From an uncultured Gemmatimonadales bacterium (GTDB lineage Bacteria > Gemmatimonadota > Gemmatimonadetes > Gemmatimonadales > GWC2-71-9), in assembly GCA_963795085.1 (NCBI GenBank), contig CAWCFX010000001.1, positions 416,001-480,000 of the forward strand: 64,000 nucleotides of DNA, given 5' to 3'. Of the stretch, positions 2,237-16,590 are shown piece by piece. Numbering within the stretch: position 1 is the stretch's first letter; each line of letters starts with the position of its first letter. Both the position numbers and the translations under genes were made by a program. The notes under the pieces were generated by a model, which did no database searches, was not told where the DNA came from, and saw only the letters and a list, made by a program, of their open reading frames with translations.

Positions 2237-3604
2237 TTAAGAGCCAGGCCTCTCAGGACCCAGGGACTCTCCATTGCTCCGGATCACCTCGGCATAGAAC
2301 CGGGCGCTCGACTTGGGGGTCCTGGCCTGGGTGGCGAAGTCCACGTGGACGATGCCGAACCGCTTGGAGTAGCCCAGGCTCCATTCATAGTTGTCGAAAA
2401 GCGACCAGGCGAAGTAGCCGCGCAGGTCCACCCCCTGCTGGATGGCGGCATGGGCGGCGCGGAGATGCTCCCGGTAGTACCAGACGCGGAGGGGATCCTC
2501 GATGGCGCCGTCCAGGGTATGCGGCGGATCGTACACCGCGGTGCCGTTCTCGGTGATGTAGAGCGGAATGGCGGGATAGCGTTCCTTGACCCAGAGCAGG
2601 ACGCGGGTCAGGGACGGCGGGTGCATCTCCCAGCCGGTCTCGGTGACCGGGTGTTGCGGCTGGGGCACGTTGCTGGACCGAAGGGGCAGGGCGGTGGGGT
2701 CGTGCCGAGTGACGCCCCGGAGATAGTAGTTGACGCCGAGGAAGTCGATCGGCTGGCGGATGAGGGCGAGGTCGTCGTCGGCGTTGGCCGGCCAGGCTTC
2801 ACCGAACACTTCTTTCAGCTCGGCGGGATGGCTGCCCAGCAGGATGGGATCGAGGTACTGCCGGTTCATGTAGGCGTCGGCCCGGGCGGTGGCCGCGAGG
2901 TCCTCGGCGCTCTCGCTGGCCGGGTACTTGGGTTCCAGGTTGACCACGACGCCGACCTGGTGTTTGCCGTTGGCGCGGTACGCCTGCACCGCCGCACCAT
3001 GGGCGCGGAGCAGGTTGTGGGCGGCGATGGGCGCCTCGAACAGGTTCCGGTGTCCGGGAGCCAGGGCGCCGTGCAGGTAGCCGCCGTCGGTCACCACCCA
3101 GGGCTCGTTGAGCGTGGCCCACATGGGCACCCGGTCGTCGAGTGCCCGGTACATGGTGGCGGCGTAATCGGCGAACCAGTGCGCGATATCCGGGTTGAGC
3201 CAGCCGCCGCGGTCGTCGAGGGTGGCGGGCAGGTCCCAGTGGTAGAGGGTCGCGGAGGGGCGGATGCCGGCGGCGAGCAGTCGGTCCACCAGCCGGGAGT
3301 AGAAATCCACCCCGGCCTGGTTGACCCGGCCGGTGCCTTCAGGGAAGACCCGGCTCCAGGAGATGCTGAAGCGGTAGGCATTGAGGCCGAGGGAGCGCAT
3401 CAGTTCCACGTCGGACTCGTAGCGCCGGTAGTGGTCGCAGGCGATGTCGCCGGTCTCGCCGTTGGCGGTGCGGCCCGGCGAGTGGGAGAAGCGGTGCCAG
3501 ATGCTGGGACCCGCGCCATCGGCCAGCGGGGAACCCTCGATCTGGTACGCGGAGGTCGAGGCGCCCCAGAGAAAACCATCGGGAAATCGGATCGGCTGGC
3601 TCAT
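2237..3604 (-). CDS. GH1 beta-glucosidase
   Basis: FPDGFLWGASTSAYQIEG, TLYHWDLP, TLNEP (acid/base), ITENG (nucleophile), DNYEW. Start set at MSQPIRF. Confidence 0.95.
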   Translation of the reverse strand: MSQPIRFPDGFLWGASTSAYQIEGSPLADGAGPSIWHRFSHSPGRTANGETGDIACDHYRRYESDVELMRSLGLNAYRFSISWSRVFPEGTGRVNQAGVDFYSRLVDRLLAAGIRPSATLYHWDLPATLDDRGGWLNPDIAHWFADYAATMYRALDDRVPMWATLNEPWVVTDGGYLHGALAPGHRNLFEAPIAAHNLLRAHGAAVQAYRANGKHQVGVVVNLEPKYPASESAEDLAATARADAYMNRQYLDPILLGSHPAELKEVFGEAWPANADDDLALIRQPIDFLGVNYYLRGVTRHDPTALPLRSSNVPQPQHPVTETGWEMHPPSLTRVLLWVKERYPAIPLYITENGTAVYDPPHTLDGAIEDPLRVWYYREHLRAAHAAIQQGVDLRGYFAWSLFDNYEWSLGYSKRFGIVHVDFATQARTPKSSARFYAEVIRSNGESLGPERPGS

Positions 3605-3621
3605 ATGATGACGGGAATGCC

Positions 3622-4713
3622 ATGGCAAACGTGAAACTCGAGTCCGTCCGGAAGAGCTTTCTCGCCGGCGGGACGACGCGGGTGGCGGTGGACGACGTCA
3701 GCCTGGAGGTGGCGGACGGGGAGTTCTGTGTGCTGGTGGGCCCCAGCGGGTGCGGCAAGAGCACCACGCTGCGCATCATCGCGGGACTGGAGAGCGCGAC
3801 CTCGGGCCGGGTCTTGATCGGTTCGCAGGAGGTCACGACGCTGGCGGCCAAGGACCGGGACATCGCGATGGTCTTCCAGAGTTACGCGCTCTACCCGCAC
3901 ATGACGGCGTACGAGAACATGGCGTTTGCGCTCAAGCTCCGGAAAATGCCGGGGTCCGACATCGACCGGCGGGTGCGGGAGGCTGCCGACATGCTGGGCA
4001 TCGGCGAGCTGCTGGAGCGCCGCCCCCGCCAGCTGTCGGGCGGGGAGCGCCAGCGGATTGCGCTGGGGCGGGCCATCGTGCGGCAGCCCAGGGTGTTTCT
4101 CTTCGACGAGCCGCTCTCCAACCTGGATGCCAAGCTGCGCCTGGCCATGCGGCGGGAGATCGCGGCGCTGCACCAGCGGCTGGCCGCCACCATGATCTAC
4201 GTGACCCACGACCAGGTGGAGGCGATGACCCTGGGCGACCGGATCGTGGTGCTCGACAAGGGGCGGGTTCAGCAGGTAGCGTCTCCGATGGAGCTGTATG
4301 ACCGGCCCCGCAACGTCTTCGTGGCCAGCTTTATCGGCAGTCCCGCGATGAATCTAGTCCCCGGGGAATTGGTTGGCGAGGCAAATGTAACGTTTCATTC
4401 GCGCGGCAACGCGTTCTCGCTGCCGCTGGGTGGCCGGGGCGTGGGAAGCTGGGCAGGACGGGAGGTGGTGCTCGGCGTGCGCCCGGAGCATGTCCACCTG
4501 GCCCCGGCCGGAGAAGGGATCGCCGCGGTGGTGGAGCTGGCGGAGCCGCTGGGAAACGAAACCCTGCTGCACGCGCGGGCGGGAGAGCACGCGCTGACGG
4601 CCCGGCTGCCCTCGGGCCCGGTGCCGGCGGCCGGGGCGGCTCTGCGGCTCGCCATTGACGGAGACAAGGTGCATCTCTTCGACGGAAAGACGGGGGAGTC
4701 GCTGGGAGCCTGA
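3622..4713 (+). CDS. Sugar ABC transporter ATP-binding protein (MalK/MsmX/UgpC family)
   Basis: GPSGCGKS Walker A, VFQSYALYPHM, LSGGERQR, DEPLSNLD, C-terminal TOBE-like region. Confidence 0.95.
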   Translation: MANVKLESVRKSFLAGGTTRVAVDDVSLEVADGEFCVLVGPSGCGKSTTLRIIAGLESATSGRVLIGSQEVTTLAAKDRDIAMVFQSYALYPHMTAYENMAFALKLRKMPGSDIDRRVREAADMLGIGELLERRPRQLSGGERQRIALGRAIVRQPRVFLFDEPLSNLDAKLRLAMRREIAALHQRLAATMIYVTHDQVEAMTLGDRIVVLDKGRVQQVASPMELYDRPRNVFVASFIGSPAMNLVPGELVGEANVTFHSRGNAFSLPLGGRGVGSWAGREVVLGVRPEHVHLAPAGEGIAAVVELAEPLGNETLLHARAGEHALTARLPSGPVPAAGAALRLAIDGDKVHLFDGKTGESLGA

Positions 4714-4727
4714 ACCGCGGCTCCTCT

Positions 4728-4758
4728 GCCCCCCTACCCCCTTACCCCCTTGCCCCCT
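4728..4758. repeat. Short octamer tandem repeat (CCCCCTTR-like, ~4 copies)
   Basis: gcccccctacccccttacccccttgccccc between the ATPase stop and the tRNA 3' end. Confidence 0.75.
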
Positions 4759-4766
4759 TTTTCCCA

Positions 4767-4848
4767 TGCGAACGCCGGGAGTCGAACCCGGACCCCTTGC
4801 GGGACAGGATCCTAAGTCCTGCGCGTCTGCCAGTTCCGCCACGCTCGC
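4767..4848 (-). tRNA. tRNA-Leu (anticodon TAG), no encoded CCA
   Basis: Minus strand GCGAGCGTGGCGGAACTGGCAGACGCGCAGGACTTAGGATCCTGTCCCGCAAGGGGTCCGGGTTCGACTCCCGGCGTTCGCA. Paired acceptor stem, long variable arm, GTTCGA T-loop. Confidence 0.97.
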
Positions 4849-4851
4849 GAG
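4810..4851. repeat. att-like 42-bp direct repeat, copy 1 (5' half of tRNA-Leu)
   Basis: tcctaagtcctgcgcgtctgccagttccgccacgctcgcgag, identical to 10803-10844. Confidence 0.95.
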
Positions 4852-4857
4852 TGATGT

Positions 4858-4863
4858 AGCATA
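4858..4863 (-). promoter_or_regulatory. Candidate -10 element (TATGCT) supplied by the island for the intact tRNA-Leu
   Basis: TATGCT on the minus strand, 9 nt upstream of tRNA nucleotide 1, inside island sequence. Confidence 0.55.
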
Positions 4864-4959
4864 ACGACTTACAGCGTTTTCACGAAATCTCAGCCAGCGG
4901 CGGTGCTGGGACAAGCGCTGGGTCTAAAGGGGCCGCTAAGTACAATCCCATCATACTCC

Positions 4960-5406
4960 TGACCTGACCCCCCAAGGACAGGGCCAGTTAGACTCGGAGG
5001 ATCCTGACCGGCCGGGAGGCCAGGAGGATCCGATGAAGGCGAAGCGGAAATACACCGATGAGCAGAGCGTCGCTATTCTGCAGGAGCATCAGGGCGGGGT
5101 CACCGCGAAAGAAGTGATCCGCCGCCACGGGATCCCGCTCGACACGTTCTACCGCTGGAAACGAAAGTATCGGGGCTTGGGCACGGCCGGGCTCCAGCGG
5201 CTCAAGGGGCTCGAGGATGAGAACCGTCGGCTGAAGGGGATGGTGGCCGATCAGGCGCTGAATATTCAAGTGCTCAAAGACGCCTTGGGAAAAGAGTGGT
5301 GACGCCAGCTCAGCGGCGGGTGGTCGTCACCGAGATGTTCACCAGCCGCCGCCTCGCCGTGCGCCGCGTCTGCCGGTACCTCGGCATCCACCGCCCCTTG
5401 CTTTAA
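4960..5406 (+). mobile_element. Truncated IS3-family element (IS407-like): left end, orfA and the first ~35 codons of orfB
   Basis: Starts TGACCTGACCCCCC. orfA at 5033-5302. Junction GGGAAAAGAGTGGTGACGCC. orfB VTPAQRRVVV...RRVCRYLGIHR then a stop. Confidence 0.85.
5033..5302 (+). CDS. IS3-family transposase OrfA (HTH_Tnp_1)
   Basis: KRKYTDEQ..ILQEH..G...VIRRHGI...TFYRWKRKY..RLK.LEDENRRLK..VADQAL...LGKEW. Shine-Dalgarno AGGAGG. Confidence 0.9.
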   Translation: MKAKRKYTDEQSVAILQEHQGGVTAKEVIRRHGIPLDTFYRWKRKYRGLGTAGLQRLKGLEDENRRLKGMVADQALNIQVLKDALGKEW

Positions 5407-5739
5407 CTACGAAGAACTCATTATCCGTGGTCCCGGTTTAGGGGCACTCTCAGGCAACGATGCGCCCGGCTGTTCCGTTGACCTCCCAACAAGGTGTCCC
5501 AAACCCGCTTGTGGTCGGCCAGCAAACCATCGAATCAGCGCCCCTGGCTGCTTACGGTCAGTCACCGCAAGTGCTCAAATGCGATATTGCCCGCCGCTTT
5601 CGCGACATTCGTTTCGTTCAGAATCATCGTAACTCTCATCCAATATCAGGATATTGACAAATATCTGACCGCATTGGGGATTTGCGTGCCACAGCTGCTA
5701 CTTGCGAAAGCACCAAGCGAGCGTCACACTGATCCTTAA

Positions 5740-6249
5740 GTGCAGTCAGAGAAACAGTTTGTATTTCGGTTGAGCCGGAAGTGCCAGATTGCCGAGGGAG
5801 CATCACTCGGGGGGCTGATGAGGGACTGTGCAGCGGCGCTTCAGATACTGGGTCATTGGGGAGAACATGCCGGCGTCGTGATCACATTTCTCCTCGATCA
5901 ACAGGGGAAAGTTGTAGGTATCGACGATGTCGTGTCTTCTTTGGGTTTCCAGAATCGGCACCAACTGGCACGGATTCTCAGGCGATCTGGTACGCCCCCA
6001 TTTGAGGAGCTGCGGGCCTGGATACAAGTGTTCACATGGGTCGTTGCATGGGAGGAAGCTGGGCTGACTCTGGAACGCTCTGCATACCTGGCAGAACGTG
6101 ATCCCAGATCATGTTATCGGACTGTTAGGCGAGTTACGCAGCTCTCGTGGTCAGTGCTCAGGCACCGCGGGTCAATTTGGCTACTGAACGAGATGGCTAA
6201 TGCCGGGAGCGCTACTCGTGAAATGACGCTTGTCGCGTTGCAACATTGA
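5740..6249 (+). CDS. Putative AraC-like helix-turn-helix regulator; start uncertain
   Basis: Two HTH-like segments (VVSSLGFQNRHQLARILRR and LERSAYLAERDPRSCYRTVRRVTQLSW) with AraC-type spacing. Sits upstream of the cargo operon. Confidence 0.5.
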   Translation: MQSEKQFVFRLSRKCQIAEGASLGGLMRDCAAALQILGHWGEHAGVVITFLLDQQGKVVGIDDVVSSLGFQNRHQLARILRRSGTPPFEELRAWIQVFTWVVAWEEAGLTLERSAYLAERDPRSCYRTVRRVTQLSWSVLRHRGSIWLLNEMANAGSATREMTLVALQH

Positions 6250-6415
6250 ACCGCAGATTGTGAACGAAGACTCATAGCGCGTGCGGTCATACTCCCTGCG
6301 AAGGCGGTTACCGATCGTGGGGCGCTCTTGAAGGCCTTGAAGTACCGGCTCGGCGTTTGAGTTGGGCGTCGGAATAGGCCTCTAGAGCGTCCAGGTAACC
6401 TTCAAGGGAGGGGAT

Positions 6416-7555
6416 ATGAAGACGCGCTGGGTGGTAGCAGTGGTTGCAGCCGTATTGCTTGCCGGCTGCAATTCAGATGGGACTGGCGATGGGCTAGCTG
6501 AGGAGAGCGATCGGGAGGCTTCCGCTGTGGCAGATGTTCACAGGAAAGTCGATAAAATCGCCTGGCAGTTTGCCTTAGCCATGGAGGCGGACAGCATCAG
6601 GCTGCTCGTGCGGGATGCGATGCGCGAGTCACCCGTTTCCGAACACAAGCTGGTACTACAGGAATTCGTGCGCACTCCGAGGGGATTGCGGGTTATGGCT
6701 GTAGCGGCCAGCGCTGGTGATCAGGATCCCGAACAACTGGAAGCGGACATTGCGCACCTTCCACCACTGGATTTTTATGTGCCAGCACGTGAGCACAGAC
6801 TCTCCTGGAAGGGCACAAAGGATATTGCCGTAGGGGCAAATGTGGATGTAGAAGCGCCACTCATTGGATATACTACTGCTGGAGTGGCGGAGAACATTGA
6901 TCGCCGGGCTGCAGCAAGTAACCTTACCTTTGTCGTGCTTCAGCCGGCAGAGCATAAATCGCAGCGAGTTGCGCCGCAAGCCGCGCGACCGGGCGCTGTG
7001 ATTCAGGATCCGGATGACGGTGAGAATAGCGGCAGCCTCACCATTAGGTATCCGGACGGAACCTCGACGACCACAGAGTTTGCCGAACTCGCGCAATTTG
7101 CTCAGTGTACTCCTGAAACCTGCCCGGAAGGCGGCGGCGGTGGAGGTGGTCAACCTGGTTCAGTACCGACTTATGTGAAACGGATAGAGATCTACGAGAT
7201 GTGCGACAACGCTAACTGTTCTGAAGGAAATGAACTCCATTTTGTCGCGACGGCAACGAATGGCACTACCTATGAACTCGTCAAGGATGACCTTCATCCA
7301 CTAACGAATTACAATGTTAATCTGTGGCAACTGGGAGTATCGCCTGCAAGCGGCTTCTTTGTCGACATCCGTGTCCGTGAAACTGATGCGTGGCCGAATG
7401 GGGATGATCATTTGTCCTACGTCACGTATTCACCGAACTTTGTAGGCGATCCTCATTTGACGCTGACTGACAACGGGTTCACATGGGGGCTAAAGGAACA
7501 GCCAAACGTGGGTGCGTTTGATGAATATAAAATAGGGGTACGTTGGGGATGGTGA
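6416..7555 (+). CDS. Hypothetical lipoprotein, two domains joined by a Cys/poly-Gly linker
   Basis: SD GGAGGGG, signal peptide with lipobox LAGC, linker CTPETCPEGGGGGGG, beta-rich C-terminal domain. Confidence 0.8.
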   Translation: MKTRWVVAVVAAVLLAGCNSDGTGDGLAEESDREASAVADVHRKVDKIAWQFALAMEADSIRLLVRDAMRESPVSEHKLVLQEFVRTPRGLRVMAVAASAGDQDPEQLEADIAHLPPLDFYVPAREHRLSWKGTKDIAVGANVDVEAPLIGYTTAGVAENIDRRAAASNLTFVVLQPAEHKSQRVAPQAARPGAVIQDPDDGENSGSLTIRYPDGTSTTTEFAELAQFAQCTPETCPEGGGGGGGQPGSVPTYVKRIEIYEMCDNANCSEGNELHFVATATNGTTYELVKDDLHPLTNYNVNLWQLGVSPASGFFVDIRVRETDAWPNGDDHLSYVTYSPNFVGDPHLTLTDNGFTWGLKEQPNVGAFDEYKIGVRWGW

Positions 7556-7582
7556 GGAAGACCTAAAGACGGGAGGGCGAGC

Positions 7583-8314
7583 GTGTCTTTGCTTGAAGCT
7601 AGCCGGCGATACATTGACGCCATACTATCGGGTCTTATGCTGCTCATGGGCACCGGCTGTAAAGGCGCGCTCGATCTTCCTCCTGGCGAGTCCAGGCCAT
7701 ACCTCCAGAGTGTACTGCAGCCGGGCGATTCCATTCAGTCAGTATGGGTGGAAGTGAGTTCGCCGGCTGAATCGTCATTTACCCCATCAATCCACCCGAT
7801 TGATCCGGCGTTGGTCAGCCTGTCGATTGTTCCATTCGCAGGACCACAAGTCCCTCTGGTGGCCGCAGCGTTGAACCCAGGAAGGTTCGATGCGACCCTG
7901 CCGGTTCAGGATGGCGAGCAGTTCAGGGTCGTGGGCACAATTGATGGAATACAGATTACAGCCAATGTCACTATCCCTGGATCATTGGTCGTAAGCGATC
8001 CCGCGACTGATACTGTTCACGTGCAAGGGGGATTATCGACGAGTCTCAGATTTCGTTGGTCATCGGCCGGTGCTTCAATCTACATCGTCGAAACCGTCGG
8101 CAACGGAGGGAGCTTACTCACCGCTGTCCGGGATACTATCGGCAGTGTTCAGATATTCCGGGTGCAGGACACGATGGCACTTGTCGTCCGGGCATACGAG
8201 GCAAATGCGAGCGAGTTTCTCTTTGTCAAAACGCCGATAAATAGAATTGCCGGCGGGTTTGGATTTATTGGTGCCGCCACTCAGGATAAGCGGTTTGTCG
8301 TTATATGGGATTAA
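7583..8314 (+). CDS. DUF4249-like lipoprotein; start uncertain
   Basis: Lipobox-like GTGC. C-terminal NRIAGGFGFIGA resembles the DUF4249 terminal motif. Overlaps the TonB-dependent receptor start. Confidence 0.65.
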   Translation: MSLLEASRRYIDAILSGLMLLMGTGCKGALDLPPGESRPYLQSVLQPGDSIQSVWVEVSSPAESSFTPSIHPIDPALVSLSIVPFAGPQVPLVAAALNPGRFDATLPVQDGEQFRVVGTIDGIQITANVTIPGSLVVSDPATDTVHVQGGLSTSLRFRWSSAGASIYIVETVGNGGSLLTAVRDTIGSVQIFRVQDTMALVVRAYEANASEFLFVKTPINRIAGGFGFIGAATQDKRFVVIWD

Positions 8315-10521
8315 ACGTCGGGCGCTGGTCGATTATCTGCCTCATAGCGTTCCCTGTGTCCCGGGCGAATGCTCAAACGTACACCGTGCGGGGAGTAGTA
8401 ACCTCTGAAGAGGATCGGGCACCACTGCGAAACGTGAGTGTTCGTACAGTCCTATCTCAGATTGCCGGGGCGACCGATCGATTCGGAAGATTCGCTCTTC
8501 AAATGCAGGCTGAGCAGGATACACTGATCGTAGCATATATCGGACGGTCGCCGGTACGAATTGCCATTAACCGGGACAGCGGTGTGCTGCTCATATCCCT
8601 CAGGGCTTCTGCTATTCCCCTTAATGACGTTGTGGTCTCGGCAGGTGGGTCACCAAGCAAGCTACACGGAGTGAACCGTTGGGAGTTGCCAGCCGCTGCG
8701 CTTCGGTTGGTCCCTTCAGCAATTGAAGTGGATCCGTTGCGATCCCTTAGCCTTATACCGGCCGTTACATACTCAACTCCGCTTTCATCCCGCCCCATCA
8801 TTCGAGGCTATGACGCGGACCATACCAGTATACGGCTGGACGGGTTCGACATGGTGAATCCATTTCATATCGGGAGGTTCTTTGGGGCGCTGCCAGCGGA
8901 AGCGGTTCAACAGGTGGCAGTTGGGAGTGCCCCACTCGAGGCGGGCGTGGGTGGGACCGTTGCGGGGATCATTGATGTGACTGGTCGCGTTGGTCCGACC
9001 GACTCAACACGCGGGGGTACAAATCTGAGCCTCATATCAGCCTCTCCCTGGATGAGCGGGGGCCAGCGGTCTTCGTGGTTTGGTGCTGGTCGGTTCGTGC
9101 ATCTCTCCGCACTTGATCACGTTACCAGTTCAAGTATCCCGTACAATTTCCAGGATATTTACCTGGGCGGATCACTCGCGGGTGACGAAGGTCAACGGGT
9201 GAGAGTTACAGCGTTCGGGTCCCGCGATGACCTGTTCGATCAGGATGATGGTGTGGGGATGAAGTGGAGCAATGTTCTCCTCGGCGTGCGGTCCCGAGTC
9301 TGGGAAACACCTGGCATAGCATTGGATGTTGCCGGTGTAACCACCAGGTTCGCCGAGAAGGCTTCTAATGTCGGAGCCAGGTTCGCCCATATCGATATCG
9401 AGAATCGCTTTGGGCGTACGGGTGCAAACACAGACCTTACGCTTCGGAGCAGGAGAACCAGCTTCGGGTTTGGCGCGGGATTTTACCGGCGCGCAATCAA
9501 GAACCGGATACACCTGAGGTCTGGAGAAGGGTTCGGGGAGCAGGATACTGATATCACAACCTCTGAAATCAACGGCTATGCTCAACTGGAGCAGTCCGTC
9601 GGGGGTGCAACCGTTCAAATTGGGCTGAGAGGCGAAGCATCACCCTCCGTCACCTCGTGGCAACCAAGAGTTAGGATCCACCTCCCATTGGGATCTAATC
9701 TAGGTTTGGGCGTTGGAGTCGGGCGTACTGCCCGATTATTTCACCTGATCTCGGACCCCAGATCAGAGCCAGATGTTGCCTTTTACGATTTTTGGCTGTC
9801 AGCCGGCGAGGGCGGCATTCCGCTGCCGCGCATAGATCACGCTTCTCTGGATCTTAATTGGATAAGGTCCCGCGTTGGCCTCAGAGTGTCTGGCTTTGGC
9901 TCGAGAGGGGAGGGCATTGGTGAGTTACGCCCGACCACAGACCATACAGTATCCCAGGATCATCAGTTCCGGTTCGGTGAGACCAGGACATTCGGGATTG
10001 AAGCTCAGGCAGGAGCAGCTCTGGGAACCACTGGAGCGAGTTCCGTATCTTTATCCTATGTGCTTAGCTGGAGCGAAAGGAAGTGGGCTGGACAATGGGT
10101 CCCCTGGTCCCAGGACAGACGGCATGTCTTGAGGCTGTTCATTCAGAAACCCATGGGTAGGTGGAAGCTTGTCGGGACGATTGAGGCCGCATCCGGCCTT
10201 CCGCTGACTCCAGTCAGCCAGGTCATCACTACCGGTATTCCAGATTCAACAGGTCAAGGGCGAGAGTCAGAATACATCTTTGGTGCGGAAAATAGTGCGC
10301 GAAGCTCCGGTACGTTGCGCGGCGACGTCGGAGTCACATATGTATTCAAGGGACCGTGGAAGAGTCGTATGTCGTTTGGATTTAGCGTTATGAATGTTGG
10401 CTTTGGTCCAGTGGCCCCCATCGAGGCCAAACCACTAGCCTTCGGCTCAACCGTAGTGAGGTATGAGCGTTTGTTTGACTTGCCGGCCATTCCAACTGCG
10501 ACTTTTAGAATCGAATTCTGA
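8305..10521 (+). CDS. TonB-dependent outer membrane receptor with an N-terminal carboxypeptidase-regulatory-like domain
   Basis: Signal peptide ending ANA-Q, VRGVV..D..PL..VSV...G..TD..G.F.L domain, plug motif IIRG...T.IRLDG...NPFH..G, amphipathic beta strands, terminal Phe. Confidence 0.9.
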   Translation: MGLNVGRWSIICLIAFPVSRANAQTYTVRGVVTSEEDRAPLRNVSVRTVLSQIAGATDRFGRFALQMQAEQDTLIVAYIGRSPVRIAINRDSGVLLISLRASAIPLNDVVVSAGGSPSKLHGVNRWELPAAALRLVPSAIEVDPLRSLSLIPAVTYSTPLSSRPIIRGYDADHTSIRLDGFDMVNPFHIGRFFGALPAEAVQQVAVGSAPLEAGVGGTVAGIIDVTGRVGPTDSTRGGTNLSLISASPWMSGGQRSSWFGAGRFVHLSALDHVTSSSIPYNFQDIYLGGSLAGDEGQRVRVTAFGSRDDLFDQDDGVGMKWSNVLLGVRSRVWETPGIALDVAGVTTRFAEKASNVGARFAHIDIENRFGRTGANTDLTLRSRRTSFGFGAGFYRRAIKNRIHLRSGEGFGEQDTDITTSEINGYAQLEQSVGGATVQIGLRGEASPSVTSWQPRVRIHLPLGSNLGLGVGVGRTARLFHLISDPRSEPDVAFYDFWLSAGEGGIPLPRIDHASLDLNWIRSRVGLRVSGFGSRGEGIGELRPTTDHTVSQDHQFRFGETRTFGIEAQAGAALGTTGASSVSLSYVLSWSERKWAGQWVPWSQDRRHVLRLFIQKPMGRWKLVGTIEAASGLPLTPVSQVITTGIPDSTGQGRESEYIFGAENSARSSGTLRGDVGVTYVFKGPWKSRMSFGFSVMNVGFGPVAPIEAKPLAFGSTVVRYERLFDLPAIPTATFRIEF

Positions 10522-10525
10522 TGGG

Positions 10526-10634
10526 TGAATCGCCCCGGCTTTTCCGGAGGCTCGGTTAGTTGAGTCCCACGGCCGCGACCAGGGTGTCGTGAACCTTGAG
10601 GTACTGCGCTTCATACTCCGCCGGGGGCACATAG
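10526..10634 (-). mobile_element. Right-end remnant of a second IS3-family element (IS51/IS6110-like)
   Basis: Terminal IR TGAATCGCCCCGGCTTTTCCGGAGGC on the plus strand. Minus strand encodes an OrfB-like C-terminus YVPPAEYEAQYLKVHDTLVAAVGLN*. Confidence 0.8.
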
Positions 10635-10802
10635 CGGAGATTAAAGATCTGAAAAAGAGCCAAGCCTGGCCACAATCTCGTATGCGGCATTAGGAGGCCG
10701 CTGGGGGAACTGCTGGAACTAACCCGCCTAGCTTGACCGTTCTGCCGCTTGGGTGGGCCAGAAGGGCCGCCCTGTCCGAGAGTGGCCCATATGCCACTAA
10801 AG

Positions 10803-10844
10803 TCCTAAGTCCTGCGCGTCTGCCAGTTCCGCCACGCTCGCGAG
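10803..10844 (-). repeat. att-like 42-bp direct repeat, copy 2: displaced 5' half of tRNA-Leu
   Basis: Identical to 4810-4851. Covers tRNA nucleotide 1 (10841) through the 7-nt anticodon loop. TAGATT -10-like hexamer upstream at 10852-10857. Confidence 0.95.
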
Positions 10845-11092
10845 AGACCCAAATCTAACGTCGAAACACCCTTCGTCCCTGGCCCCGCGGTTCGGGAAAC
10901 CTTCGCTCCGGCCGAGCACCTTCCCGGTCGCCCCCGATAACCTGTCACTCACGTACTACAGATTCGCACTTCACTCCTGAAATCTGCTGGTTCTCCTGCA
11001 CCAGCATACCCGTCATGCTGTACCAGCATGCCCGTCATGCTGATCCAGCGTCCTGGTACACTTCTACAGATTGCCGGGCGGGACCAACAGGG

Positions 11093-11585
11093 GACCGGTC
11101 CGGTCCTGCAGGAGACTACTACCTCATTGTGAGATGACCGTCCGGTCCGACAGGACGCCACTACCTCATTGTGAGGTGACCGGTCCGGTCCGACAGGGGA
11201 CCACTACCTCATTGTGAGGTGACCGGTCCGGTCCGACAGGGGACCACTACCTCATTGTGAGGTGACCGGTCCGGCCCGACAGGAGACCACTACCTCATTG
11301 TGAGGGCGCCGGTCCGGTCCTGCAGGAGACCACTACCTCATTGTGAGGGCGCCGGTCCGGTCCGACAGGACGCCACTACCTCATTGTGAGGTGACCGGTC
11401 CGGTCCGACAGGGGACCACTACCTCATTGTGAGGGCGCCGGTCCGGTCCTGCAGGAGACCACTACCTCATTGTGAGGGCGCCGGTCCGGTCCGACAGGGG
11501 ACCACTACCTCATTGTGAGGTGACCGGTCCGGTCCTGCACCTTGCCGGTCCACCATTGAGAGATGTCCGGGTCCCTCCTGCAGGT
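11093..11585. repeat. Non-coding 43-bp tandem array, 10 well-conserved units plus degenerate edges
   Basis: CTACCTCATTGTGAG starts at 11119, 11161, 11204, 11247, 11290, 11333, 11376, 11419, 11462 and 11505. Confidence 0.97.
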
Positions 11586-11667
11586 TGCCAGTACCCAATC
11601 GACCGCACCGTGGTCCATGTCGGTAACTGCTGATGACACAACGACATCAGGCCGCCCCTCGACACAT

Positions 11668-11880
11668 TCAATCCCCTCCGCCATCCCCACCCCCATCGCA
11701 GCCCCCGTCACCCCCGCCATCCGCACCGCCGTCTCCGCCGGTGGTCCACCAGGAGGTGTCTCCTGCTGCCCGAGCCGGCAACAATCCCCGCTTTCGCGCC
11801 CCCCAGCGCAGGGCCGTGATGAGGCCCAGCGCGATCGCGAAACTGCCGGCGAGATAGAGCACCAGGTAGATCACCACCAT
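11668..11880 (-). CDS. Small membrane protein with a Gly/Asp-rich C-terminal tail
   Basis: SD GAGGA, one N-terminal TM helix, tail GGDGGADGGGDGGCDGGGDGGGD. Confidence 0.6.
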   Translation of the reverse strand: MVVIYLVLYLAGSFAIALGLITALRWGARKRGLLPARAAGDTSWWTTGGDGGADGGGDGGCDGGGDGGGD

Positions 11881-12019
11881 AGTATCCTCTCAGTATCCTT
11901 CCGGCCGAGTATCCGCGCGCATGGCCAACTTCCTCGTGACAGCCCTCACCGTGCCCCGCCGAGGCGAGGGGTAACTTGACGGCGGACCGGAACACCTGAC
12001 TTGAATCTCAGCCAAGCCC

Positions 12020-12985
12020 ATGCCCCGTCAAGCTCTCTATCTCGTTCTCGCGTCACTGGTTACGCCGCTCGGCGCATGCAAGATACCCGCCAGCGCCACC
12101 CCGCCACCCGCCGAAGCCTCCGCCGAGATGACGGCGCTGGCCGGGGCCTCCGTGATGATCGCTACCGGCGACATCGCCTCCTGCGGCTCCGACGGCGACG
12201 AACTGACCGCCGTCCTGGTGGACAGCCTGCTCAAGGCGGACAGCGCCGCCGGTGTCACCGATGTGGTGGCCATTCTGGGCGACAACGCGTACCCCGGCGG
12301 GACCGCCCGGGACTTCGAGCGCTGCTTCACCCCCTCCTGGGGCGACCCGAACAAGAGCATCATGAAGCAGGTGCGGCCCACCCCCGGCAACCACGAGCAC
12401 CTGACCGACATGGCCACACCCTATTACAAATATTTCGGTGACCGGGCCGGGTCTCCCAGCAAAGGCTACTACGCCTACGACCTGGGCGAATGGCGGGTGA
12501 TCGTGCTGAACAGCGAAATGGTCGTGAACAGTTCGTTTGCCTCGGCGGAACAGGACGCCCAGCGGGACTGGCTCCGCAACGAACTCCAGGCCAACCAGAA
12601 GAAGTGCACCATGGCCTACATGCACCACCCGAGGTTCAGTTCCGGCTGGCACGGCAGCGACCTCCGCATGGAACCCTTCTGGCAGATTCTGTACGACGCC
12701 GGCGTGGACGTGGTCCTCTCCGGCCACGACCATGAGTACGAGCGGTTTGCGTCCCAGACACCTTCCGGCGTGGCCGATACCGCCAAGGGCATCGTCCAGT
12801 TTGTCGTGGGGACCGGCGGCGGGGAATTGCGCGGCTTTCGCACCCAGCCGGCCCCCAACAGCATGTCTCGGGTCGAAGGGCACTTCGGGATCCTCAAGAT
12901 GGCGCTGGGCGCCGAAGGCTACCAGTACGCGTTCATTGACACCGAGCGGCGGATCTGGGATCCCGGCGCGGGGGTGTGCCACTGA
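12020..12985 (+). CDS. Calcineurin-like metallophosphoesterase, probable lipoprotein
   Basis: Lipobox LGAC. Motifs GD, LGDNAY, GNHE, HHP, GHDH. Confidence 0.9.
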   Translation: MPRQALYLVLASLVTPLGACKIPASATPPPAEASAEMTALAGASVMIATGDIASCGSDGDELTAVLVDSLLKADSAAGVTDVVAILGDNAYPGGTARDFERCFTPSWGDPNKSIMKQVRPTPGNHEHLTDMATPYYKYFGDRAGSPSKGYYAYDLGEWRVIVLNSEMVVNSSFASAEQDAQRDWLRNELQANQKKCTMAYMHHPRFSSGWHGSDLRMEPFWQILYDAGVDVVLSGHDHEYERFASQTPSGVADTAKGIVQFVVGTGGGELRGFRTQPAPNSMSRVEGHFGILKMALGAEGYQYAFIDTERRIWDPGAGVCH

Positions 12986-12988
12986 AAA

Positions 12989-13161
12989 GCGTGCAGCGTG
13001 CGGTGTGCAGCGTGCAGCGTGCGGTGTGCAGCGTGCGGCGTGCGGCGTGCAGCGTGCGGCGTGCGGCGTGCGGCGTGCGGCGTGCAGCGTGCGGCGTGCA
13101 GCGTGCAGCGTGCGGCGTGCGGGTGTGAACGCTCCACGCTTTATGCTCCACGCTCCACGCT
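12989..13161. repeat. Heptamer tandem repeat (GCGTGCR) ~19 copies, followed by GCTCCAC heptamers
   Basis: Direct reading. Lies between two convergent stop codons. Confidence 0.95.
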
Positions 13162-15419
13162 TACCTTGTCAGCGCCGCCGCCGCGGAATCCACCACCGCC
13201 GCCGTCCCTCGCACCGCCGCCGCGACCCGTTCGATCTCCCGATCCGCACGCTGCCACTCTCGCTGCTCGATGGACTCCCGCACGCCGGGCATCGTCTTGA
13301 CCCCATAGCCGGTGTAAAACCCCGGTGCGTAGATCAGGTGCTGGAACCAGGGGCGGTTGGGGAGCCCCTCGCGGCTGGCCAGCGCGCGCTCGCTCCTGAG
13401 GAGAAGCGCATTGACCGCCGCCAGATTTCTTCGGTCGAGGCTTGCGACTGAATCGGACAGCGCCGCCGCGTATGCCTGGTTGAACGACTCGGCCGCGGCG
13501 GTCAGCGCCGCGAGGGCATTCTCCAGCGGCGCGAAGTTAAGGTGCGGGGGCTGGTCCAGCGGCCGGGGGTCACTGGTGGGAACCCGCGGATCGCGGGTGG
13601 CCCGGTGGACACCCTCCTCAAGCTGCATCGTGAGCTCTCGGCTCTCCGCCTGGCGCTCGTTCACCAGCGTCCTGATCTCGCCGAGATAGCGTCCGTAGGT
13701 ATCCGCCTGCCGGGAGAACTCGAACGGCAGCAGCTGGGCGCTGGCCAGCCGCATGACCGCAGTCCCCACCGTCTGGGAAAGCGCCGCCCCATACGCGAAG
13801 GAGGAATCGCTGAAGGTGCTGTACCAGCGGTAGTCGTCATAGATGGAGTGGTAGATCCCGCCGCCGTCCTCGCCGCCGTACCCCAGGTTAAGCGACGCGA
13901 TGGCCAGGTGCTGCAGAAAGGGCGTGAAGTCGGACCCGGATCCCAGGGCGTCGAGGCGCAGGTCGCCGCGGGACCGCGCCTCGGCCCGGGTCTCCGGGTT
14001 GCCTCCCTGGATGGTTCGCAGCTGCAGCCGCTTCCAAGCCGACAACCCCGTCTCCGGATCGGTGATATCGCGTGCCACTTCGTTCATGAACCGCTCCAGG
14101 CTGTGGGAGCCGCCCATGTCGAGATAGCCGCGGCCGTTGCCGTCGGTGTTGAGGTAGGCGACGGCCTTCCGGTCGAGTTCTTCGGCGTGGGTCTCCGCCC
14201 ACTCGGTGGAGCCCAGCAGCCCCTGTTCTTCACCGCCCCAGGCGGCGTAGATGATCGTACGGGCCGGCCGCCACCCCTGGCGGTAGAGCGTTCCCAGCGC
14301 CCGCGCCTCTTCCATCAGCGCCACCTGGCCCGAGACGGGATCCTCGGCGCCGTTCACCCAGGCGTCGTGGTGATTGCCGCGTACCACCCATTGGTCCGGC
14401 TGGGTAGCCCCGGGCAGCCGGGCGATGACGTTATAAACCCGGGCCGTCTTCCAGTCGGACCGCACCTTGAGCCGCACCCGGGCGGGACCCGGCCCGATAT
14501 GATAGGTGATGGGAAGTCCGCCCTGCCAGGCGCGGGGCGCGGTGGCCCCGCCCAGGGCCGCGAGCAGCGGCTGCGCGTCGCCGTAGGAAATCGGCAGGAC
14601 GGGGATCCGCGTGAGGGTGGTGGCCTCGGCGATTGACTTGCGGGGGGCGCCTTCCACGGCGCCGATCCCCGGGGTGAGCGGGTCGCCCGGGTGGAGCGGC
14701 ATATCCATCACGCTTCCCCGCTGGACGCCGGTGCTGGGCCGCCAGGGTCCGTCCGGATAGACGTCCCCGCCATGGTACCCATCGTCCCGCGGATCGGAGT
14801 ATATGATGCAGCCGACGGCGCCACGCTCGGCCGCCAGCTTGGGCTTGATGCCTCTCCAACTGGCGCCATAGCGGGCGATCACGATGGCGCCCTTGACGCT
14901 GATGCCGCGCCGCTCCAGCGAGTCGTAATCCGCCGGGATGCCGTAGTTCACATAGACCAGCGGCGCGGTCACGTCGCCGTCTATGGAGTAGGCGTTGTAG
15001 GAGGGCAGCTGCTCGGACTGCTGGCTTGAGGTCGGGTCTCCCGGCAGGGCCGGCTCGACCAGGCGTGCGCGGAACCGCCGCGGCGCGACCAGTTCCACCA
15101 CCCGCTCGAGCGGCGTCGGGAAGAGCACATCGAACGTCTCCAGTTTCGCATCCCACCCCCAGGAGGCGAGCCGGTCCCGGATCCACTCGGCGTTGGCCCG
15201 GTCGTAGGGGCTGCCCAGGTGGTGGGGGCGCGCCGCGAGGTGCCGCATGTAGGCGCGGAGGCTGTCCCGGTCCGGCAACGCGCGGAACTTTTCTTCCCAG
15301 CCGCGCTGGACCCGCGCCGCCTCGGCGGAGAACCCCCGGATCGGCGGGTCCGCAACGGGGCCACGGGGGAGAACCAGCAGGACGGCGAGCACCGAAAGAA
15401 CCGGCCGCACACGGGTCAT
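13161..15419 (-). CDS. M28 peptidase, glutamate carboxypeptidase II/PSMA-like (PA and TFR dimer domains)
   Basis: Signal peptide, YVNYG PA domain, GNHHDAW, GA.DP.SG, WGGEEQGLLGSTEW, GSGSDF, YHSIYD. Confidence 0.93.
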   Translation of the reverse strand: MTRVRPVLSVLAVLLVLPRGPVADPPIRGFSAEAARVQRGWEEKFRALPDRDSLRAYMRHLAARPHHLGSPYDRANAEWIRDRLASWGWDAKLETFDVLFPTPLERVVELVAPRRFRARLVEPALPGDPTSSQQSEQLPSYNAYSIDGDVTAPLVYVNYGIPADYDSLERRGISVKGAIVIARYGASWRGIKPKLAAERGAVGCIIYSDPRDDGYHGGDVYPDGPWRPSTGVQRGSVMDMPLHPGDPLTPGIGAVEGAPRKSIAEATTLTRIPVLPISYGDAQPLLAALGGATAPRAWQGGLPITYHIGPGPARVRLKVRSDWKTARVYNVIARLPGATQPDQWVVRGNHHDAWVNGAEDPVSGQVALMEEARALGTLYRQGWRPARTIIYAAWGGEEQGLLGSTEWAETHAEELDRKAVAYLNTDGNGRGYLDMGGSHSLERFMNEVARDITDPETGLSAWKRLQLRTIQGGNPETRAEARSRGDLRLDALGSGSDFTPFLQHLAIASLNLGYGGEDGGGIYHSIYDDYRWYSTFSDSSFAYGAALSQTVGTAVMRLASAQLLPFEFSRQADTYGRYLGEIRTLVNERQAESRELTMQLEEGVHRATRDPRVPTSDPRPLDQPPHLNFAPLENALAALTAAAESFNQAYAAALSDSVASLDRRNLAAVNALLLRSERALASREGLPNRPWFQHLIYAPGFYTGYGVKTMPGVRESIEQREWQRADREIERVAAAVRGTAAVVDSAAAALTR

Positions 15420-15436
15420 GAAAGGCTCCGGTTAGA

Positions 15437-15471
15437 AGGGGGCAAGGGGGTAAGGGGGTAAGGGGGCAAGG
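15437..15471. repeat. Octamer tandem repeat (GGGGGYAA) x4
   Basis: gggggcaagggggtaagggggtaagggggcaagg. Confidence 0.85.
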
Positions 15472-15982: not shown

Positions 15983-16590
15983 TCTACTGGAGACGAGCCC
16001 TGCCTTGAACAACAAAGTCCGAAAAGCAAATATTCAACAAGGCTTATTGGGTCCCGCAGCATAGTACCGGAGACAGGCCCTGCTTTGACACGAAAGCACG
16101 AAAAACAAACAGCAAATGTTTTCCTGTTTTATCGTTCTTCGTGCTTTTGTGATAAGGCAGGCTTGCACCTCTGTACAATCTTTACCTCTCCAGGATCAGG
16201 CTTGCCTCTCCGTACAATTTCTGGCCCCGTGTCCGGTAGGATAGTACTGGAGACAGCCCCTGCCTTGACACGAAAGCACGAAATACAAACAGAAAAGAAA
16301 CTTTTTCTTGTTTTATCATTCTTCGTGCTTTTGTGATCAGGCAGGCTTGCACCTCTGTACAATCTTTACCTCTCCAGGATCAGGCTTGCACCTCTGTACA
16401 ATTTCTGGCCCGGGTCCCGTAGGATAGTACTGGAGACGGGCCCTGCCTTGACACAAAAGCACGAAAAACAGACAGAAAAGAATCGTTTTTCCTGCTTTAT
16501 CATTTCTTCGTGCTTTTGTGATAAGGCAGGCTTGCACCTCTGTACAATCTTTACGTCCAGGATCAGGCTTGCATCTCTGTACAATCTCCA
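15983..16590. repeat. Three tandem ~181-bp units (plus a partial one) of a palindromic intergenic element
   Basis: Units start at 16061, 16241 and 16424. Each has GCCCTGCYTTGACAC.AAAGCACGAA ... TTCGTGCTTTTGTGAT.AGGCAGGC around an A-rich/T-rich core. Confidence 0.92.

Follow-up and report, generated by a model that had tools for sequence, protein, structure and literature searches.

A probable decayed 5′-type integration scar at the anticodon loop of a single-copy tRNA-Leu(UAG) gene in a Gemmatimonadales bacterium

Introduction

Cis-mobilisable elements (CIMEs) and other integrase-less island remnants are flanked by att sites. Islands that carry a 5′ rather than a 3′ fragment of their target tRNA gene have been described in two settings. 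In the available text of the Islander survey, a 5′ tDNA fragment marks 159 of 3919 islands (Hudson, Lau and Williams, PMC4383910). In archaea, the accessible parts of two reports on pTN3 place its attachment site in the 5′ half of a tRNA-Leu gene and describe the reconstituted gene as "separated from its original promoter" (PMC5495485; PMC8371274). The original prediction for the locus studied here implied that islands with a 5′ fragment are exceptional; judging from these texts, this overstated the case, as they form a documented minority class.

Here, we analyzed such a locus in an uncultured Gemmatimonadales bacterium. Its configuration is already in the literature, is a rare mirror image of the usual entry of islands into tRNA genes and changes no principle. 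We consider it likely that an integrative element once entered this genome's sole tRNA-Leu(UAG) gene at the anticodon loop, with the rare 5′-type polarity, and that the locus is its decayed scar.

Results

The 5′ half of tRNA-Leu(TAG) is duplicated around foreign DNA

The window, that is, the whole 64-kb stretch of DNA analyzed, contains a perfect 42-bp direct repeat involving the following features:

4767..4848, minus strand: intact tRNA-Leu(TAG), the sole genomic copy, with nt 1-39 inside repeat copy 1 (ARAGORN; Rfam tRNA, 53.9 bits)
4810..4851, minus strand: repeat copy 1, nt -3 to 39, the 5′ half of the working gene, where island arm, shared core and host 3′ half meet (repeat search)
10803..10844, minus strand: repeat copy 2, the orphan tRNA-Leu(TAG) 5′ half, nt -3 to 39, unable to form a tRNA (called by neither ARAGORN nor Rfam)

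The repeat comprises nt 1-39 of the tRNA and three upstream bases, and its 3′ limit is the last base of the 7-nt anticodon loop (C33-A39). Because the tRNA lies on the minus strand, the duplicated portion is the 5′ half, and this end fragment sits 5.99 kb upstream of the full gene on the tRNA strand, on the same replicon and in the same orientation. Within the window, the 42-nt string has exactly two occurrences, no match to it appeared in 100 dinucleotide-preserving shuffles, and allowing one mismatch lengthens the repeat to 45 nt. Together with the ARAGORN call, the exact match and the shuffles confirmed the prediction that the repeat represents the 5′ portion of the tRNA up to the end of the anticodon loop. 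Rfam reported tRNA-Leu as the only RNA family in positions 3500-13500. Across the 3.89-Mb genome, the tRNA's 5′ half was found at just these two sites, tRNA-Leu(TAG) is single-copy among 52 tRNA genes, and CUA can be read only by this tRNA-Leu(UAG).

The 5951 bp between the repeats have a GC content of 55.9%, compared with 67.4% for the genome, and are a foreign island. Besides two short unique arms, they hold an outer-membrane receptor cassette of three genes and the truncated remains of two IS3-family elements:

4852..4959, no strand: 108-bp island arm adjoining the intact tRNA, with a GC of 0.53 and no second copy in the genome, holding TATGCT and TAAGTC
4960..5402, plus strand: truncated IS3-family element that keeps the initial ~440 bp of a 1223-bp IS (77-80% DNA matches to a multi-copy IS in order relatives; Pfam)
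5403..6415, plus strand: island DNA of no recognisable function in domain and homologue searches
6416..10521, plus strand: cargo, the three-gene cassette (Pfam)
6416-7555, plus strand: lipoprotein, cassette gene 1
7583-8314, plus strand: second lipoprotein-like protein, cassette gene 2
8305-10521, plus strand: TonB-dependent-receptor-like protein with CarbopepD_reg_2 and Plug domains, cassette gene 3
10523..10639, no strand: terminal ~115-bp fragment of a second IS3-family element (74-94% matches in many order genomes, often at contig ends)
10640..10802, no strand: 163-bp island arm adjoining the orphan half, with no second copy in the genome

The composition (GC 0.559 versus 0.674) supports the prediction that the inter-repeat DNA is an island. 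The DNA upstream of the intact tRNA is likewise island sequence, as predicted, and the orphan half retains the flank toward the genus-conserved genes, leaving the presumed native upstream DNA to drive the orphan alone.

The first IS fragment carries an orfA HTH_Tnp_1 ORF at 5033-5302 and lacks orfB; the second corresponds to the terminal part of an orfA/orfB(rve) element of ~1.3 kb in G179. The two fragments (443 and 117 bp) are unlike each other, are each unique within the genome and are set inside the unique arms rather than at the repeat edges. Given these truncations and positions and a duplication of 42 bp, we rejected an IS3-family composite transposon. The sole PADLOC hit, "DrmC" (an 89-aa IS3 OrfA-like protein), was not accepted as a defence gene and was read as a transposase HTH, because Pfam HTH_Tnp_1 and the IS alignment account for the match. 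A homologue search with the ORF at 5740-6249 (169 aa) returned nothing but itself. The three-gene order of the cassette recurs in the chromosomes of relatives at 26-46% identity, away from tRNA-Leu. A DNA comparison of the whole island with 401 genomes from the order recovered nothing beyond the two IS fragments and a single weak match to the cassette, with neither arm matched, and searches of GTDB species genomes with the two largest cargo proteins found no close relatives.

The host flanks

On the left, the flank consists of an ABC-transporter gene and then the tRNA, and its collinearity with congeners G001 and G004 extends as far as the tRNA 5′ end. The right flank comprises the following:

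10845..12019, no strand: presumed native upstream flank of the tRNA, non-coding, holding TAGATT (10852-10857, minus strand)
12020-12985: genus-conserved Metallophos gene
13161-15419, minus strand: genus-conserved M28 peptidase gene

A 43-bp tandem repeat (10.4 copies, 11089-11535) lies within the presumed native flank. The DNA directly upstream of the tRNA differs in each congener, and the TonB-receptor/BlaR1 block that congeners carry upstream of Metallophos is absent from this genome; therefore, the arguments for regarding 10845-12019 as native are its composition and the next genes. Two contig ends of G004 (C82 and C109) share BlaR1-like sequence at 76-87% identity. This likeness hints at a linkage of tRNA and Metallophos in the genus, with paralogy as a possible explanation.

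No same-species genome, contig or empty site was present among the genomes and metagenome contigs searched. In the metagenome contigs, the Metallophos query found no relatives, and the 80 loci returned by the ABC-transporter query were all too distant to be useful, reaching 61% identity at best.

Integration at the same tRNA gene in relatives

This genome has two further islands, one at tRNA-Lys and one at tRNA-Met, with breakpoints at the anticodon arm and the usual 3′ polarity. In our sample of 401 genomes of the order, 5′ orphans of tRNA-Leu(TAG) occur in five and sequence-verified 3′ orphans in six. The sequence-verified 5′-half orphans of G148, G275, G241 and G400 end at nt 40, and the 3′-half orphans of G016, G347, G399, G176, G204 and G047 start at nt 31-37; additional 3′ orphans were identified by coordinates only in G361, G292 and G019, the last of which falls outside the threshold.

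In G241, the orphan's flank aligns with the upstream flank of the intact tRNA of the congener G192 at 91.5% over 4301 nt and is collinear exactly to tRNA nt 40. G241's own intact tRNA and downstream flank are collinear with G192 at 89%, and the DNA upstream of that intact tRNA is not homologous to G192. By these alignments, G241 and G192 are a clean pair of filled and empty sites. The mirror-image integration at this tRNA does take place in relatives (G148, G275, G241 and G400), and the empty site expected in island-free relatives, which the genomes searched did not supply for the present species, is seen in the related G241/G192 case.

Two other pairs were less clean. The orphan of G148 carries C20, like its island-free congener G110, and its working gene carries T20, like the copies of other elements; however, the 3′ halves and flanks of this pair differ too, and G148 holds a second partial copy. 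G340 was rejected as the empty site for G275, since a beta-lactamase-family gene lies in its gap. G275 itself shows the same architecture as our locus on a single contig; a search of viral contigs with the small-terminase-like protein of its element gave no match. We considered whether the islands of G399 and G204 (1.7 kb) encode a new recombinase and rejected this, as their large ORFs are mutually unrelated and neither has a Pfam hit. One of these ORFs resembles a secreted lipoprotein.

Sequences upstream and downstream of the two tRNA copies

The original prediction named TATGCT as the -10 element of the intact tRNA and TAGATT, now at the orphan half, as the native promoter. The hexamers are sited as predicted, TATGCT at 4863-4858 (minus strand; -15 to -10 of the intact tRNA) and TAGATT at 10857-10852 (minus strand; -16 to -11 of the orphan half), but a sigma-70 consensus scan gave no match upstream of either copy. 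A further hexamer, TAAGTC, lies at -23 to -18 of the intact tRNA within the 108-bp arm. TATGCT and TAGATT resemble the TATATT of congeners in position only, and by position they are plausible promoter hexamers. The present tRNA promoter is presumed to lie within the 4852..4959 arm, and transcription of the tRNA has probably been handed over to mobile-element DNA.

In relatives, cgTAAGTTgaagc stands at the native promoter position in the arms of the G241, G275 and G148 elements, and an intrinsic terminator with a 14-15-bp hairpin and a U-run is predicted 6 nt past the displaced half in G275 and G148. In our genome, pattern matching found a weak terminator-like hairpin with a T-run at 10671-10658 on the tRNA strand, in the 10640..10802 arm. 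A terminator after this orphan was unsupported, because the match is weak and the sequence folds no better than shuffles.

Recombinases and mobility of the island

Recombinase domains were absent from 75 of the 76 stop-to-stop frames of at least 45 aa in the island and from its annotated ORFs; the remaining frame, the receptor ORF, was covered by a separate Pfam scan. PF00589 had no match within the 64-kb window. Neither island end carries an integrase-like frame, and at the right end lie the receptor gene and an IS fragment on the other strand. A profile search of the genome for an integrase that might act in trans, as the prediction had envisaged, recovered only XerC, XerD, an integron integrase and one short recombinase in another island. 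The latter is a 250-aa tyrosine recombinase in the similarly low-GC tRNA-Met island and matches only positions 87-275 of the XerC model. No integrase was identified for elements of either polarity at this tRNA among those examined, with PF00589 searched across the whole genomes of our bacterium (G000), G047, G347 and G275 and selected island ORFs scanned in G016, G176, G399 and G204.

The prediction that excision would restore the native promoter gained no support: the island holds neither an integrase nor a remnant of one, and since no cognate integrase was found in the genome, excision is unlikely. The island might still be an integrase-less, cis-mobilisable or satellite-type element that a recombinase supplied in trans, from the genome or an incoming helper, excises with restoration of the native promoter. 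Both att-like junctions are indeed intact (42/42 identical), the contiguous islands examined at this tRNA in relatives also showed no integrase in the genome searches and selected-ORF scans above, which could mean action in trans, and a tyrosine recombinase is available in the tRNA-Met island. However, that enzyme is short and has its own island at tRNA-Met, the remaining recombinases of the genome are XerC, XerD and the integron integrase, and the arm DNA left between each repeat and the neighbouring IS fragment amounts to just 108 and 163 bp. Moreover, the sole soil-metagenome run with this DNA (0.06 share; short contigs only) yielded two contigs identical to island pieces and no joints, which says little given that only contigs were available. 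The search for sequencing runs found no RNA data set that contains this DNA. We regard continued mobility as unlikely. With the two IS3-family elements present only as truncated fragments and no recombinase left, the island is probably fixed and immobile.

Discussion

After weighing these data, we propose a putative history for the island. The attachment site of the incoming element would have consisted of tRNA nt -3 to 39 together with the element's own upstream DNA. The searches and scans described above revealed no integrase of an element at this tRNA, so we infer the type of recombinase. It would most probably have been a tyrosine integrase that used the 7 nt of the anticodon loop as overlap region. 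A crossover there would have left the host promoter and host 5′ half as one product, now the orphan at 10803-10844. In the other product, 5.99 kb further along the tRNA strand, the host 3′ half would have become joined to the arm and the 5′ half of the element, forming the working gene, whose transcription would now have to start in the 108-bp arm or deeper within the island. The interior would have been remodelled later, leaving the IS3-family elements as truncated fragments and losing the recombinase, with the receptor cassette as cargo.

The arrangement could also be an assembly artefact: the assembly may have inserted a small circular element into the chromosome through the 42-bp core that both have in common, or the second copy may have been mis-joined. 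A possible metagenome origin of the genome speaks for such an error. However, the window lies deep in a 1.39-Mb contig of a 6-contig assembly, the repeat, at 42 bp, does not reach the length of usual final k-mers, let alone that of long reads, and the architecture recurs on one contig in G275. Even with an artefact, the element would still carry a 5′-type attachment site. We hold an artefact to be highly improbable. Target duplications of IS3-family insertions span a few bp, not 42 bp. An origin by IS3-mediated transposition or illegitimate recombination of the cargo beside a local duplication of the tRNA front half, suggested by IS3-family fragments near both island ends, is very unlikely, as both copies are truncated within unique arms off the repeat edges and the repeat stops at the anticodon-loop edge, as do the 5′ and 3′ orphans in ten relatives.

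Returning to the integrative element, we speculate that the 5′-type class carries a "promoter take-over module", an arm imitating the native tRNA promoter plus a terminator, and that the tRNA-Leu(UAG) loop is a landing site shared by two mirror-image element classes, our island being a decayed member of a second lineage of the 5′-type class. We think this rather unlikely. If it were true, the element would silence read-through from the orphaned host promoter and itself control an essential single-copy tRNA. The same integrase lineage might even switch polarity through the symmetry of the anticodon stem.

As a well-bounded case from a bacterium, our locus enlarges a minority class of tRNA islands and, together with the relatives, presents one tRNA gene targeted in both polarities inside one order. 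This set of genomes could serve questions about changes in attachment-site polarity and about promoter supply by such elements.

Among known systems, CIMEs share with the island two intact att-like junctions around a cargo that is devoid of integration and transfer genes; no intact element related to the island was found in the 401 order genomes, metagenome contigs, GTDB species genomes or viral contigs. From what the accessible texts describe, pTN3/TKV4-type archaeal elements (Cossu et al. 2017, PMC5495485; PMC8371274) likewise use the 5′ half of a tRNA-Leu gene (41 bp there, 42 bp here) and sever the reconstituted tRNA from its original promoter. In contrast, their SSV-type "suicidal" integrase gene contains attP and splits on integration, whereas no N- or C-terminal integrase fragment abuts either junction here, so that we rejected an SSV/pTN3-type element; the host is bacterial, and the isoacceptor is UAG instead of CAA. 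The 5′-fragment class of Islander, as set out in its available text (PMC4383910), agrees in having an intact tDNA and a cognate end fragment in the same orientation with the 5′ fragment upstream, a break in the anticodon loop, an island in between, foreign composition and a length within 2-200 kb. Our island differs in having no internal integrase gene, for which the Islander integrase filter would reject it, and in an interior reshaped by two truncated IS3-family elements. Finally, the 3′-type islands at the same tRNA-Leu(TAG) (G016, G347, G399, G176, G204 and G047) share the target gene, the loop boundary, a small size (1.7-9 kb), varied cargo and the lack of a visible integrase, but in them the duplicated part is the 3′ half, and the tRNA stays under its native promoter.

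Structure of the island at tRNA-Leu(TAG)

The exact 42-bp direct repeat claimed in the original prediction was borne out: the 42-nt string is present exactly twice in the window (4810-4851 and 10803-10844), no match arose in 100 shuffles, and the repeat lengthens to 45 nt if one mismatch is allowed. The tRNA-Leu(tag) gene (4767-4848, minus strand) was the sole RNA match of Rfam on 3500-13500 (53.9 bits) and is present in one copy among the 52 tRNA genes of G000, the genome under study. Since the tRNA lies on the minus strand, the repeat corresponds to tRNA nt 1-39 plus three bases upstream, and it ends at the final base of the anticodon loop. Across all 3.89 Mb of the genome, which comprises 6 contigs and includes the window as C1:416001-480000, the tRNA 5′ half occurs at only two sites, both of them repeat copies. 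The predicted geometry, an island between the repeats with the 5′ half duplicated to the end of the anticodon loop and one half left as a displaced orphan, proved right.

The island (4852-10802, 5951 bp) has a GC content of 0.559, versus 0.674 for the genome and 0.689 for the flanking ABC-transporter gene, and its recognisable genes are on the plus strand in every case.

Features of the island
5033-5302, plus strand, IS3 OrfA-type HTH protein, 89 aa
5740-6249, plus strand, orphan ORF whose only database match is itself
6416-7555, plus strand, first lipoprotein-like protein
7583-8314, plus strand, second lipoprotein-like protein
8305-10521, plus strand, receptor of 738 aa with CarbopepD_reg_2 and Plug domains

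The two lipoprotein-like genes and the receptor gene form one cassette, found in the same order and at 26-46% identity on family relatives' chromosomes, at sites not near tRNA-Leu. A nucleotide search with the island against 401 genomes of the order, followed by alignment of the matches, identified two IS fragments. Positions 4960-5402 correspond to the initial ~440 bp of an IS3-family element 1223 bp long, of which G152 holds two copies 99.6% identical to each other. A different IS3-family element, whose full-length copy in G179 has orfA and an orfB with an rve domain, accounts for 10523-10639 with its last ~115 bp. The unique arms that remain next to the repeat copies are 4852-4959 (108 bp) and 10640-10802 (163 bp). 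No further copies of either arm or either IS fragment were found in the G000 genome.

Flanks of the site

The left flank is collinear with congeners for about 2.1-2.6 kb up to the tRNA 5′ end, with 74% identity to G001 over 2652 nt (alignment end at window 4850) and 78% to G004 over 2101 nt plus an identical tRNA. On the other side, the Metallophos gene (12020-12985) and the M28 peptidase gene (13161-15419) have orthologues in all four congeners (64-70% identity), on contigs other than that of tRNA-Leu. The DNA directly upstream of the tRNA is different in each congener, and nothing in G000 corresponds to the TonB-receptor/BlaI/BlaR1 block found ahead of Metallophos in G001, G003 and G004. Therefore, no direct same-species empty site is demonstrable.

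The non-coding stretch between the orphan and the Metallophos gene contains a 43-bp unit repeated 10.4 times (11089-11535, 89% identity; weak partial match at C4:6724-6794) and a 22-bp unit repeated 2.5 times (10996-11049), and 10877-11003 has a weak partial match at C1:1346219-1346346. Arrays of 7-bp units (GCGTGCG / GCACGCT) include 19 copies at 12989-13122; similar arrays immediately precede at least three tRNA genes, namely tRNA-Lys(ttt) (window 59156), tRNA-Lys(ctt) and tRNA-Ser(cga), and further tRNA genes are preceded by other short tandem arrays. Shortly downstream of the tRNA, at 4727-4759, lies a C-rich 33-nt motif (CCCCCTTNCCCCC...), which has an inverted copy 10.7 kb away (15436-15468) and about 20 similar copies genome-wide. 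A low-GC (0.47) non-coding patch (15985-16590) holds three ~184-bp tandem units with internal 33-nt repeats and inverted repeats.

5′-type insertions in relatives

When the 85-nt tRNA was searched against a sample of 401 order genomes, 29 of them gave at least two matches by our own count of the table; 28 of the 29 were resolved, G095 excepted. No conclusion here depends on G018, G095, G107, G218 or G369, which enter only as genomes counted in the searches. Sequence data confirmed 5′-half orphans that end at nt 40 in G275, G148, G241 and G400, and 3′-half orphans that start at nt 31-37 in G016, G347, G399, G176, G204 and G047; those of G361, G292 and G019 (the last under the survey threshold) come from coordinates only. 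All other second matches were duplicates, pieces at contig ends or different tRNA-Leu genes. The islands of G016 (L051 2619-8441: SDH-type ClpP-like protease, proteasome-subunit-like protein, DUF2299) and G400 (TIR-domain protein at the island end, L187 357-1256) carry cargo that looks defence-like or protease-like.

The cleanest comparison among relatives is that of G241 with its congener G192. Over 4301 nt, the orphan contig of G241 is collinear with the upstream flank of G192 at 91.5%, up to tRNA nt 40 and no further. The intact-tRNA contig matches G192 collinearly from the tRNA 5′ end through the downstream flank (2703 nt, 89%); the DNA upstream of the intact G241 tRNA has no counterpart in G192. 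G192 is thus the empty site and G241 the filled site of a 5′-type insertion, which is a real event type at tRNA-Leu(TAG) in relatives. In G275, the orphan and the intact tRNA lie on the same contig and strand, 2.35 kb apart. Position 20 is C in the G148 orphan, as in the island-free congener G110, and T in the working gene of G148, matching the copies carried by the G275 and G241 elements, which suggests that the element supplied the 5′ half; the comparison is imperfect, as G148 and G110 differ also in the tRNA variable arm and flanks and G148 holds a second partial copy. Two partial 5′ tRNA copies 1.1 kb apart in G148 (nt 13-40, L080 7511-7538; nt 1-40, L080 8644-8683) suggest a tandem array of 5′-type elements.

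The G275, G148 and G241 elements are related, with the sequence after the orphan common to all three (it includes a small-terminase-like ORF in G275) and cgTAAGTTgaagc in the arm adjoining the intact tRNA, where island-free genomes have gcTAAGTT. In G275 (L079 4552-4600) and G148 (L080 8684-8735), a 14-15-bp perfect hairpin beginning 6 nt past the orphan (z -2.2, -3.1) is followed by a U-run (UUCUGUCUUUUU) and looks like an intrinsic terminator stopping transcription from the displaced host promoter. The DNA search of the 401 genomes showed the G000 arms to be unrelated to these three elements.

Promoter candidates

The hexamer upstream of the intact gene is TATGCT (-15 to -10), and that upstream of the orphan is TAGATT (-16 to -11). 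TATATT occupies the same upstream position in G001, G002, G004 and G016, TAnnnT does so ahead of 16 of the 52 tRNA genes of G000 (our own count of the table), and TAGATT also lies upstream of a tRNA-Asn gene. Neither the tRNA nor the orphan upstream region passed a sigma-70 consensus scan. Both hexamers are plausible promoter candidates.

Recombinases and mobility

No recombinase was found in the island: Pfam on 75 of the 76 stop-to-stop frames (at least 45 aa, 4849-10860) gave HTH only, and the 76th, the receptor ORF, was scanned separately with Pfam. A PF00589 search of G000 gave five matches, none inside the window.

Tyrosine recombinases of G000
XerD
XerC
C2:15534-16520, integron-integrase-type (TIGR02249, 375.7 bits)
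250-aa protein of the tRNA-Met island, with similarity to Xer models confined to their catalytic part
Weak fragment in the 3-kb tRNA-Lys island

The two tRNA islands of this list are conventional 3′-type islands at the anticodon arm: tRNA-Lys(ctt), C1:616571-619670, with its weak integrase fragment, and tRNA-Met, C1:1082100-1099972 (17.8 kb), which has a similarly low GC content (0.51-0.55) to the tRNA-Leu island and also an IS3 transposase fragment.

The original prediction had proposed looking for an integrase acting in trans, and no cognate integrase was present among these proteins. Because of this, and because only 108 and 163 bp of the arms are left, we consider the island probably fixed in G000. 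Less probably, a recombinase acting in trans could still mobilise it.

Relation to known tDNA islands

We infer an insertion with the overlap in the anticodon loop and an attP carrying the 5′ half. The recombinase would be a tyrosine integrase of the anticodon-centred class, summarised in part of a review (PMC8371274). Its overlap region would be the 7-nt loop, with the symmetric anticodon stem on either side, because the repeat boundaries fit: the G000 repeat runs from the tRNA 5′ end to the loop 3′ edge, and that of the 3′-type islands of relatives from the loop 5′ edge to the tRNA 3′ end. The attP would have carried the tRNA 5′ half in place of the 3′ half, so the element would have had to bring its own promoter, and the host promoter would now drive the orphan only. 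No integrase was identified for any element at tRNA-Leu(TAG), of either polarity, within PF00589 searches of the whole genomes of G000, G047, G347 and G275 and Pfam scans of selected island ORFs of G016, G176, G399 and G204.

Overall, we file the G000 island as working like a 5′-type anticodon-loop tDNA island. It differs from full members of the tDNA-island class in having no integrase, and therefore fits a decayed remnant. The phenomenon is a rare but documented class. In an excerpt of the Islander paper (PMC4383910), 3760 of 3919 islands have a 3′ tDNA fragment and 159 a 5′ fragment, and the configuration filter accepts a 5′ fragment located upstream of the gene. The excerpted review of archaeal tyrosine recombinases (PMC8371274) describes the same situation as rarely met in bacteria. 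For pTN3, an excerpt of the original report (PMC5495485) gives 41 bp in common between attP and attB; the tRNA-Leu gene that holds them is rebuilt 'separated from its original promoter'.
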